40,033 nucleotides of DNA, taken from the UHGV virus genome UHGV-0235137; one strand, 5' to 3'. Each line of letters starts with the position of its first letter. The stretch's first letter is position 1. Position numbers and translations under genes: made by a program. Of this stretch, positions 1,419-3,097 are shown in pieces. The notes below the pieces were generated by a model that did not search any database, had not been told where the DNA came from, and saw only the letters and a program-made list of their open reading frames with translations. This DNA comes from a virus.

Positions 1419-1766
1419 ATGAAAACTTGTATTAGGTGCAAACTTAGCAAGGATGAAAGTGATTTCTACATGAAAGATGGTAGGAGAACTCATTCATACT
1501 GTAAAAAGTGTGTTAATGAGCAAACCATAGAAAGACAAAGAGCACTTAAACTTTCAGCTATTGAGTACAAAGGTGGGGTTTGTCATGATTGTGGTAAAAG
1601 GTATCATCCAGCAGTGTATGACTTCCATCATTTGAATCCTTCAGAGAAAGATTTTAACATTGGTCATAGAAAAAGTCTTAAGTTCTCTCAGGAGCTAAAG
1701 GACGAACTTGACAAATGTGTTTTGCTATGTTCAAATTGCCATAGGGTAAGACATGCAAAGTATTAG
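1419..1766 (+). CDS. HNH endonuclease (zinc-finger-containing, homing-type)
   Basis: ORF track 1374-1766 trimmed to the first ATG outside the upstream tRNA; CxxC pairs and HH...N...CxxCH motif (FHHLNP...CSNCHRVRH); paralog of 2684-3097. Confidence 0.8.
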   Translation: MKTCIRCKLSKDESDFYMKDGRRTHSYCKKCVNEQTIERQRALKLSAIEYKGGVCHDCGKRYHPAVYDFHHLNPSEKDFNIGHRKSLKFSQELKDELDKCVLLCSNCHRVRHAKY

Positions 1767-1903
1767 TTAGCAGATTGCTTAGACGACCTTATCGGGTCTC
1801 CGTGTAAGGAGGTGGTCTGTATCTCATGTTTTCCAGAACATGTAAATAATCTGAGAAGGGGCTTTACAGTGTTGCGAAAATACGGTAAGCTTCGAATTAT
1901 AGT

Positions 1904-1986
1904 ATGGGACGATGTTAAGACTCTAAGGCATGAGCAACGGCTTCCAACACCGTTTCAAAGGGGTTCAACTCCTCCGTCCCATGCCA
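1904..1986 (+). tRNA. non-canonical tRNA-like gene, probable tRNA-Trp (anticodon CCA) with about 7 extra nt in the D region
   Basis: acceptor atgggac/gtcccat, anticodon hairpin acgg(c)-ttCCAac-(a)ccgt, T-loop ttcaact, discriminator G, CCA at 1984-1986. Confidence 0.55.
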
Positions 1987-1999
1987 AAGTCTTATTAGG

Positions 2000-2087
2000 G
2001 GTAGGTAGCGGCTAATGGTAGCCAAGCAGTCTTGAAAACTGTTGCCACTGTAGAGATACGGTGAGGGTTCGACTCCTTTACTTACCG
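2000..2087 (+). tRNA. tRNA-Ser (anticodon UGA), long variable arm
   Basis: acceptor ggtaggt/acttacc, anticodon hairpin gcagt-ctTGAaa-actgt, long variable arm, T-loop ttcgact; CCA not encoded. Confidence 0.8.
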
Positions 2088-2245
2088 CCTAATAAGATTT
2101 TACACCGTCCATGCTTGCTCGCATTTTCGGTTTATCCCTCGTGTATTGTCGTACACACTGATAAAACACCTAGTAGGTGTCACGGAGAAGAGATAATATC
2201 AAGCTCTCCAAAGGTTCTAGTCACCGGATTAAACAAGACTATGCA

Positions 2246-2266
2246 AAGACCTATTTAGGTCTTTTT
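2246..2266 (+). terminator. possible intrinsic terminator inside the tRNA array
   Basis: hairpin aagacc-tattta-ggtctt followed by ttttta; AT-rich stem so weak. Confidence 0.3.
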
Positions 2267-2345
2267 AGAGGGCTTCTAAGGTTATTACAGCTTGTTGTGG
2301 AACCTTGTTGCTTAGGTTCTTAGAAGTTCTCTAAAAAGATTTAAT

Positions 2346-2423
2346 GGGAGATTGACGGTAATTGGTAAACCTACCATCCTTAGAAGTTGGTGTTTGAGGG
2401 TTCGAATCCCTTGTCTCCTACCA
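2346..2423 (+). tRNA. tRNA with anticodon UAG (Leu by anticodon) but short variable arm
   Basis: acceptor gggagat/gtctcct (with G-U pairs), D-loop with GG, anticodon hairpin ccatc-ctTAGaa-gttgg (one U-U mismatch), T-arm gaggg-ttcgaat-ccctt, A73, CCA at 2421-2423. Confidence 0.6.
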
Positions 2424-2430
2424 AATTAAT

Positions 2431-2506
2431 GCAGGTGTAGCAAAATGGTTATGCGGCAGACTTTTAATCTGACAGGCGATGGGTTCGAATCCCTCCACCT
2501 GTACCA
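2431..2506 (+). tRNA. tRNA-Lys (anticodon UUU), copy 2
   Basis: acceptor gcaggtg/cacctgt; body from D-arm to T-arm identical to copy 1 apart from two D-region substitutions; CCA at 2504-2506. Confidence 0.7.
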
Positions 2507-2512
2507 AACAAT

Positions 2513-2588
2513 GGGGTCATAGTTTATATGGTTAAAATTCGAGTTTTGCAAACTTGGGAACTGAGTTCAATTCTCAGTGACTCCACCA
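2513..2588 (+). tRNA. tRNA-Ala (anticodon UGC)
   Basis: acceptor ggggtca/tgactcc, anticodon hairpin cgagt-ttTGCaa-acttg, perfect T-arm ctgag-ttcaatt-ctcag, CCA at 2586-2588. Confidence 0.85.
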
Positions 2589-2594
2589 ATTAGT

Positions 2595-2669
2595 GCATCC
2601 ATAGTTTAAACGGGAAAATTACAGTCTTCCAAACTGAGGTTGAGGGTTCGATTCCCTCTGGATGCTCCA
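2595..2669 (+). tRNA. tRNA-Gly (anticodon UCC)
   Basis: perfect acceptor gcatcca/tggatgc, anticodon loop ctTCCaa, T-arm gaggg-ttcgatt-ccctc, CCA at 2667-2669. Confidence 0.85.
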
Positions 2670-2683
2670 AATTAAGGCGTGAT

Positions 2684-3097
2684 ATGAAAATATGTAGTAC
2701 TTGCAGAATACCAAAAGATGAAAGCTTATTCCATAAGAATAAGAGTAAAAAAGATGGTCTTCAAACACAATGTAAAGAGTGTGCAAGACTCCGTGATGCA
2801 AAGAGTTATCAAGGTAATAAGAAAAGGAAAGAAGCTATTAAAAATGCTCGTGAAGATAAGCGAGATTACAATAGAAACTTGACTAGAAGATATAAGGCTT
2901 GGTGTAAGTGCAAGATATGTGGTGAAAAAGAACCAGTTGCATTGGATTTACATCACACTGACCCTTATGAGAAAGACTCAAACCCAGCGTCACTTTATTC
3001 TTATTCCACAAAAAGGCTAAAAGCTGAAATTAGAAAGTGTATTGTTTTGTGTGCCAATTGCCACAGAAAAGTACATGCAGGTATCATAAAGATTTAA
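2684..3097 (+). CDS. HNH endonuclease (zinc-finger-containing, homing-type)
   Basis: 137-aa ORF starting 15 nt after tRNA-Gly; CxxC pairs and LHHTDP...CANCHRKVH motif; paralog of 1419-1766. Confidence 0.8.
   Translation: MKICSTCRIPKDESLFHKNKSKKDGLQTQCKECARLRDAKSYQGNKKRKEAIKNAREDKRDYNRNLTRRYKAWCKCKICGEKEPVALDLHHTDPYEKDSNPASLYSYSTKRLKAEIRKCIVLCANCHRKVHAGIIKI

Follow-up and report, generated by a model that had tools for sequence, protein, structure and literature searches.

What are two short genes for HNH-type proteins doing inside the transfer RNA (tRNA) array of a phage genome? This question is raised by the viral genome UHGV-0235137, a sequence of 40,033 nucleotides (nt) that was analysed as a whole and is called here the window. 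An earlier reading of it, the original prediction, pointed to positions 1419-3097 as two paralogous HNH endonuclease genes inserted between tRNA genes, suggestive of homing-type endonucleases that either invaded the array or process or target tRNA-adjacent DNA. We propose that the two open reading frames (ORFs), ORF1 and ORF2, are probably free-standing homing endonuclease genes, which belong to one zinc-ribbon plus HNH family and occupy one spacer of the array each. The window can be assigned to a Felix O1/wV8-type myovirus (Ounavirinae), a Felixounavirus, because its first 6 kb matched 350 phage records (all such counts take in GenBank/RefSeq duplicates and laboratory derivatives), 154 of which cover at least 80% of the query, with Escherichia phage SP22 and Salmonella phage Felix O1 as the best matches (94-95% identity), and because its large terminase (5051-6667) is 99.6-99.8% identical to its counterparts in many Felixounavirus phages. 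In Felix O1 the same genes stand at the same array positions as ORF45 (NP_944866) and ORF47 (NP_944871), both annotated 'HNH endonuclease', with a DNA identity of 96% for ORF1 and 84% for ORF2. The finding is correct but ordinary, since both its kind and its occurrence in this group of phages were known before.

The paralogy of the two proteins was confirmed by pairwise BLASTP (35% identity over the full length, E 7e-17), and both match PHROG 2255, 'HNH endonuclease' (E 6e-40 and 2e-41); a tblastn search of the 40-kb window found no further paralogue. The zinc-finger N-terminus and the HH...N...CxxCH core that had been noticed in both proteins were borne out by an alignment of 43 family members. 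In the N-terminal CxxC...CxxC zinc ribbon, C4, C30 and C33 are invariant and C7 is present in 42 of the 43 members, while C76, C79, H90, H91, C123, N125, C126, H127 and H131 (ORF2 numbering) occur in all of them, and ORF1 has a counterpart of every conserved residue of the zinc ribbon and the HNH core. The catalytic His, the structural Asn and the metal-binding His/Asn, conserved in 43/43, are H90-H91, N125 and H131 in ORF2, and H70-H71, N106 and H112 in ORF1. Both proteins also have the beta-beta-alpha fold of the HNH, or His-Me finger (beta-beta-alpha-Me), nucleases, here braced by two zinc-binding CxxC pairs. Their nearest structural and sequence relatives are the DNA nucleases Hpy99I, PacI, McrA and Cap5, and group II intron En domains. 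A sequence search of solved structures gave marginal HNH matches only (McrA, E 0.002; LtrA En domain, E 0.05), the defence-system and NCBIfam libraries gave just weak McrA-like HNH matches, and the NCBIfam scan gave no relevant match. Because the ratios of non-synonymous to synonymous substitution rates (dN/dS) are low, 0.09-0.13 for ORF1 and 0.03-0.08 for ORF2, both genes are kept functional by purifying selection, with their catalytic and zinc-binding residues preserved. The identity with T4 endonuclease VII, a name that some records use, was rejected: Pfam gave no endonuclease VII match, and ORF2 reaches the PHROG families labelled 'endonuclease VII' at E about 1e-9 to 1e-10, far below its match to the HNH family.

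Both ORFs start within 15 nt of a tRNA 3' end, as had been stated. ORF1 begins 15 nt past the CCA (1401-1403) of a tRNA-Arg(UCU)-like gene, at the MKxC that is conserved in the family alignment, and ORF2 begins 14 nt past the CCA of tRNA-Gly(UCC), its stop codon ending 1 nt ahead of tRNA-Thr; both upstream tRNA(-like) genes are co-oriented with their ORF. A longer reading of ORF1 from the ATG at 1374, which the Felix O1 RefSeq annotation uses, would overlap the tRNA-like gene. The same overlap is found in Felix O1 itself, where the annotated start of ORF45 (130 amino acids (aa); NC_005282, 26003-26395; L001, 2491-2883) is probably too far upstream, the true start lying 15 codons further downstream, at MKTC.

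That the genes are inserted between tRNA genes, also part of the original prediction, was upheld by the comparison with insert-less phages that had been suggested as a check, which defined a 357-nt and a 423-nt insert. Phage humlepung has the same array with neither gene, and precise empty sites were found in five relatives. At the empty ORF1 site of humlepung, ...CGACCAAT is directly joined to TTAGTTAGC, and at its empty ORF2 site ...GCTCCAAA is joined to CAATGCTGC. The shorter insert comprises a 13-nt leader plus ORF1 through its last sense codon (junction ambiguity 2 nt, TT), and the longer one ORF2 preceded by a 12-nt leader in which AAGG forms a Shine-Dalgarno-like motif (junction ambiguity at most 4 nt, TTAA). 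Both inserts begin 2 nt after the encoded CCA, and that of ORF2 extends to the 5' edge of the tRNA that follows. Rfam scans of positions 1-6000 and 1290-2000 detected no intron-like RNA family, even at E up to 10, and the genes are therefore regarded as free-standing. A group I intron context is ruled out by this result, and an intein is impossible because the neighbouring genes encode RNA.

The distribution of the two genes among relatives is sporadic. Of the 154 records in which at least 80% of the 6-kb array is covered, 26 contain ORF1 DNA (96-100% identity) and 15 contain ORF2 DNA; more than 80% of the relatives with the same tRNA genes are without these proteins. All four combinations of presence and absence were found among nine arrays, SP22 carrying both genes. 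From these records ORF1 and ORF2 are to be seen as optional, independently assorting genes. Across the Felixounaviruses, HNH genes fill five different array spacers, designated sites A to E (Table 1), of which B and D are occupied in the window while A, C and E are empty. Felix O1 ORF48, which is not in the window, was rejected as a further homing gene, as its product is of membrane type and resembles neither ORF1 nor ORF2.

The tRNA genes next to the insertion sites bring a further line of evidence. The upstream neighbour of ORF1, which ARAGORN did not call and which most genome annotations omit, consists of an acceptor stem, a T arm and an anticodon arm whose loop reads CUUCUAA (UCU); its D arm is deleted, and a 20-nt extra variable region is present. 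A canonical tRNA-Arg(tct) stands at exactly the same position in Ro111lw. The D-armless allele was found in 121 records (at least 99% identity in 76) and the canonical allele in 145; ORF1 is joined to the D-armless allele in 26 of its 26 copies and is absent from all 145 records in which the canonical allele occurs (Fisher p 2.5e-10). At site C, similarly, the nuclease is accompanied by a divergent tRNA(-like) gene of its own, which lies upstream and takes the place of the resident one. There the window holds another tRNA-like element, in which an acceptor stem and a T arm combine with a 9-nt 'anticodon' loop CUUCCAACA and a ...GCCA end, and the 9-nt spacer that follows it (1991-1999) is the empty site C, where wV8-type phages have a third paralogue: L007/wV8 carries a divergent, more canonical tRNA-Trp(CCA)-like gene together with a 134-aa HNH protein. 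The linkage of alleles at sites B and C fits what co-conversion by a free-standing homing gene would give. As to ORF2, two of its alleles differ by a dS of about 1, yet the flanking tRNA-Gly is identical and the tRNA-Thr nearly identical.

The association with tRNA genes extends to the whole family. When IMG/VR was scanned with the family alignment, 80 diverse viral loci were obtained; in these, ARAGORN found a co-oriented tRNA (a transfer-messenger RNA (tmRNA) in two loci) at most 100 nt from the HNH gene in 45 loci, and at most 1 kb from it in 54. As a deliberately harsh control we took the other ORFs of at least 100 aa within the same loci: a co-oriented tRNA or tmRNA lies within 100 nt of 47 of the 77 family ORFs (61%), versus 100 of the 547 others (18%; odds ratio 7, p 3e-14). 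The end of the HNH ORF often overlaps the following tRNA by 10-22 nt, and in several loci the HNH gene lies between two isoacceptor tRNAs (Gly/Gly, Asn/Asn, Pro/Pro). Since the upstream isotype is highly variable across the loci, no single tRNA is the partner of the family. Some individual loci are peculiar. In L075 (3622-3966) and L076 (16-360) the family member lies 31 nt downstream of a phage-encoded tmRNA gene, not of a tRNA; in L045-L048 and L059 the HNH frame meets an early stop under the standard bacterial code; and in L036, L037 and L059 an amber-suppressor tRNA (anticodon CUA; ARAGORN label 'Pyl') lies about 40 nt upstream of the HNH gene. Early stop and suppressor tRNA occur together only in L059, a combination that suggests phages with stop-codon recoding.

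From these data we favour the homing interpretation, because the residues are intact and under purifying selection, the inserts are minimal, with precise empty sites and a sporadic, independent occurrence, HNH genes sit at three further spacers in relatives, the linked tRNA alleles fit co-conversion, the whole family is associated with tRNA genes, and there are precedents in T4 SegB and in hegA, hegC and hegD of T5. The homing-type reading of the original prediction is in keeping with all of this evidence. In the scheme that we propose, which is that of classical intronless homing, the two nuclease genes would be co-transcribed with the tRNAs, ORF1 from promoter P45 and ORF2 by read-through, and tRNA processing would trim their mRNAs, whose weak ribosome-binding sites would allow little translation. 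When a related phage without the gene infects the same cell, the enzyme would nick or cut its empty allele, at or close to the spacer or the adjoining tRNA gene, and recombinational repair off the gene-carrying genome would copy the gene and the neighbouring tRNA alleles into the recipient. The carrier genome would be protected, either by the insert, which would split the site, or by a difference in the linked tRNA allele.

Several points weigh against this interpretation. Cleavage, target site and biased inheritance are predictions made from sequence. The Pfam HNH model PF01844 is matched at 16.7 and 19.5 bits, just under its gathering cut-off of 21.4, and Foldseek against the PDB returned nothing below E 0.001. 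The record counts include the duplicates and laboratory derivatives mentioned above, and the link between ORF1 and the Arg-like allele could be mere physical linkage over 15 nt after a single insertion. Furthermore, a sliding identity profile of the nine arrays resolves into a patchwork, with blocks of either 80-85% or 97-100%, in which the presence of the genes is not mirrored; it shows no long tract of co-conversion, and the flanking haplotypes are shuffled, with no tracking of gene presence past the immediately adjacent tRNA. In itself, this patchwork neither supports nor refutes homing.

The precedents deserve a closer comparison. The 2010 Felix O1 genome paper (PMC3185647) already lists six HNH homing-endonuclease homologues, a count repeated by later comparative work (PMC8300805), and this published description is without the empty sites, the frequencies, the linked tRNA alleles and the family-wide tRNA association. 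SegB of T4 and T6 is likewise an optional free-standing nuclease gene among tRNA genes, and its ORF runs up to the tRNA that follows. In mixed infections SegB makes the tRNA region be inherited preferentially, and its expression is presumably held down when the transcript undergoes tRNA processing (PMC2330249). In 2026 a statistical tie between SegB and tRNAs was reported, as was an amplification of tRNA genes (PMC13096335). However, SegB has a GIY-YIG catalytic domain and no sequence relationship to ORF1 and ORF2, for which neither Pfam nor PHROGs gave a GIY-YIG match, and its activity has been demonstrated, whereas that of ORF1 and ORF2 we infer from their sequences. The two genes would therefore work like SegB without being members of its type, since their domain is HNH. 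A further precedent is set by F-TflI/II/IV of phage T5 (hegA, hegC, hegD), HNH-superfamily genes that lie inside a phage tRNA array, with 3' ends that extend 14-23 nt into the following tRNA and with stable RNAs of tRNA-like type nearby, and that are cited as tRNA-cluster homing endonucleases (PMC2330249). They differ in belonging to other HNH subfamilies with other DNA-binding modules, and membership in the same family was rejected, as by BLASTP against ORF1 and ORF2 hegA reaches only E 0.005-0.007, over the core motif, and hegC and hegD give nothing. For the HNH genes in tRNA clusters of mycobacteriophages, a part in the spread and diversification of tRNA repertoires has been proposed (Morgado and Vicente 2019, PMC6409571); the Mycobacterium and Streptomyces phage homologues of ORF2 are distant (31-37% identity) and belong to other phage lineages.

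Other roles for the two genes have been weighed against homing. The strong tRNA association of the family, the purifying selection and the HNH genes between isoacceptor tRNAs would also suit former homing genes that are now retained since their breaks remodel the array, by allele replacement, gene conversion, deletion and perhaps reversible amplification, against tRNA-cleaving host defences. A benefit of this kind has been reported for SegB of T6: besides its statistical tie to tRNAs, SegB drives tRNA-Tyr, along with other anti-defence loci, to amplify (PMC13096335), and a weak hint comes from recombination scars near ORF2. One of them is the second tRNA-Lys (2431-2506, + strand), which has the anticodon UUU in the window versus CUU in all eight relatives compared; its central portion of about 45 nt, from anticodon arm to T arm, is identical to the first tRNA-Lys(UUU) (811-886, + strand), so that it looks like an intra-array gene-conversion patch from this gene that switched the anticodon. 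The other is a chimeric tRNA-Leu(taa) (3348-3426, + strand), with a 5' part from Leu(caa) and a 3' part from Leu(taa), which marks a deletion of about 1 kb that removed tRNA-Arg(acg), the 185-aa membrane-type ORF equivalent to Felix O1 ORF48 and tRNA-Gln(ttg), and that is also present in IME338, Si3, FM4b and FG1m. However, the window contains no tandem amplification, most relatives manage without ORF1 and ORF2, this deletion is shared by phages in which ORF2 is not known to be present, and in so repeat-rich an array the scars may lie close to the genes by chance. We regard retention for remodelling as an unlikely explanation.

Two further roles, in tRNA metabolism and in DNA packaging, fail because most relatives with the same terminase and the same tRNA genes are without the proteins. 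The genes always lie within tRNA operons, and in Felix O1 a gene for an 'RNA-binding protein' is located just upstream of the array, which would suit enzymes that act not on DNA but on RNA, to process phage tRNA precursors or cleave host tRNAs. But the nearest relatives of both proteins are DNA nucleases, and neither Pfam nor NCBIfam detected an RNA-binding or tRNA-binding domain in them. With the genes dispensable in relatives, we reject a tRNA-processing role, the sense in which the alternative of the original prediction was taken, and we consider any action on RNA very improbable. The location of the large terminase gene (terL), on the same strand and about 2-3.6 kb downstream, brings to mind HNH nucleases of the type of HK97 gp74, accessories to packaging which help the terminase in cutting concatemers. 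Cooperation between an HNH protein and the terminase is established for HK97-like phages. It is also discussed in PMC10448857. In the present case, however, both genes are missing from most of the Felixounaviruses with a 99%-identical terminase, and relatives without them are viable, so that they are dispensable and show no terminase-adjacent conservation across the phage group; many tRNA genes and a membrane-protein gene lie between the two ORFs and terL, and family members in other phages follow tRNAs, not terminases. A packaging function thus has next to no likelihood.

Returning to homing, a bolder extension can be put forward as a speculation, which we hold to be possible but rather doubtful: the zinc-ribbon plus HNH clade would be a tRNA-array specialist across enterobacterial, gut Bacteroidota-type, jumbo and archaeal viruses, moving as a 'tRNA plus nuclease' cassette, and its breaks would be a main engine of tRNA-repertoire turnover. 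If so, this turnover would proceed via allele replacement, anticodon-switching gene conversion, deletion and duplication, and SegB-like adaptive amplification against tRNA-cleaving defences might be possible. The D-armless Arg(UCU)-like gene would then be either a cleavage-resistant allele carried along by ORF1 or a preferred landing site.

The wider value of the finding is modest but real. As optional selfish elements, rather than parts of the tRNA or packaging machinery, ORF1 and ORF2 would be negligible or deletable in the engineering of therapeutic phages of the Felix O1 type. With five polymorphic nuclease sites, many sequenced natural partners with and without the genes, and easy hosts, the Felixounavirus array is a convenient system for asking whether phage tRNA repertoires are shaped or amplified by homing genes of the HNH kind, as was shown in 2026 for the unrelated GIY-YIG enzyme SegB.

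Table 1. Features of the nuclease loci in the window, and nuclease sites of the Felixounavirus tRNA array
Feature	Position or spacer	Strand	Evidence or remarks
ORF1, zinc-ribbon plus HNH endonuclease, 115 aa	1419-1766	+	Felix O1 ORF45 equivalent
ORF2, zinc-ribbon plus HNH endonuclease, 137 aa	2684-3097	+	Felix O1 ORF47 equivalent
Insert B, 357 nt, missing in ORF1-less relatives	1406-1762	+	Alignments with humlepung, L007, BPS15Q2, Ro111lw, AYO145A
Insert D, 423 nt, missing in ORF2-less relatives	2672-3094	+	Alignments with relatives
tRNA-Arg(UCU)-like gene, non-canonical, upstream neighbour of ORF1	1322-1404	+	Rfam tRNA 31.7 bits (gathering score 29)
Second tRNA-like element	1905-1990	+	Fold and weak Rfam match; not called by ARAGORN
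tRNA-Gly(UCC), upstream neighbour of ORF2	2595-2669	+	Identical in relatives with and without ORF2
tRNA-Thr(UGU), downstream neighbour of ORF2	3099-3175	+	
Promoter-like site, sigma-70-type (TTGACA-17-TATAGT)	1060-1088	+	11/12 consensus matches; identical in four relatives
Site A	Met/Ile		Felix O1 ORF44, same family; 12 records
Site B	Arg-like/...		ORF1; 26 records
Site C	Trp-like/Ser(tga)		wV8 gp50 type, 50% identical to ORF2; 22 records
Site D	Gly/Thr		ORF2; 15 records
Site E	Ser(tga)/Leu(tag)		SP22_0480, unrelated HNH; 10 records

The tRNA array of the window spans positions 94-4621 of the plus strand, with 19 tRNA genes called by ARAGORN. Its promoter-like site is the same element that the Felix O1 paper lists as P45 (25600-25628; PMC3185647), and it probably drives the transcript that carries ORF1. 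In the 460-nt gap between tRNA-Asp and tRNA-Lys, a lone T-arm-like fragment (553-603, + strand; Rfam tRNA 22 bits, below threshold) may be the remnant of a tRNA gene. Downstream of the P45-like promoter, two non-coding stretches of the plus strand, 1095-1320 and 1767-1904, are strongly conserved, and weak tmRNA-like Rfam matches touch one of them (986-1170, at 29.6 bits, and 1129-1190). By analogy with the unexplained RNAs annotated in the tRNA region of T5, both stretches may correspond to stable small RNAs.

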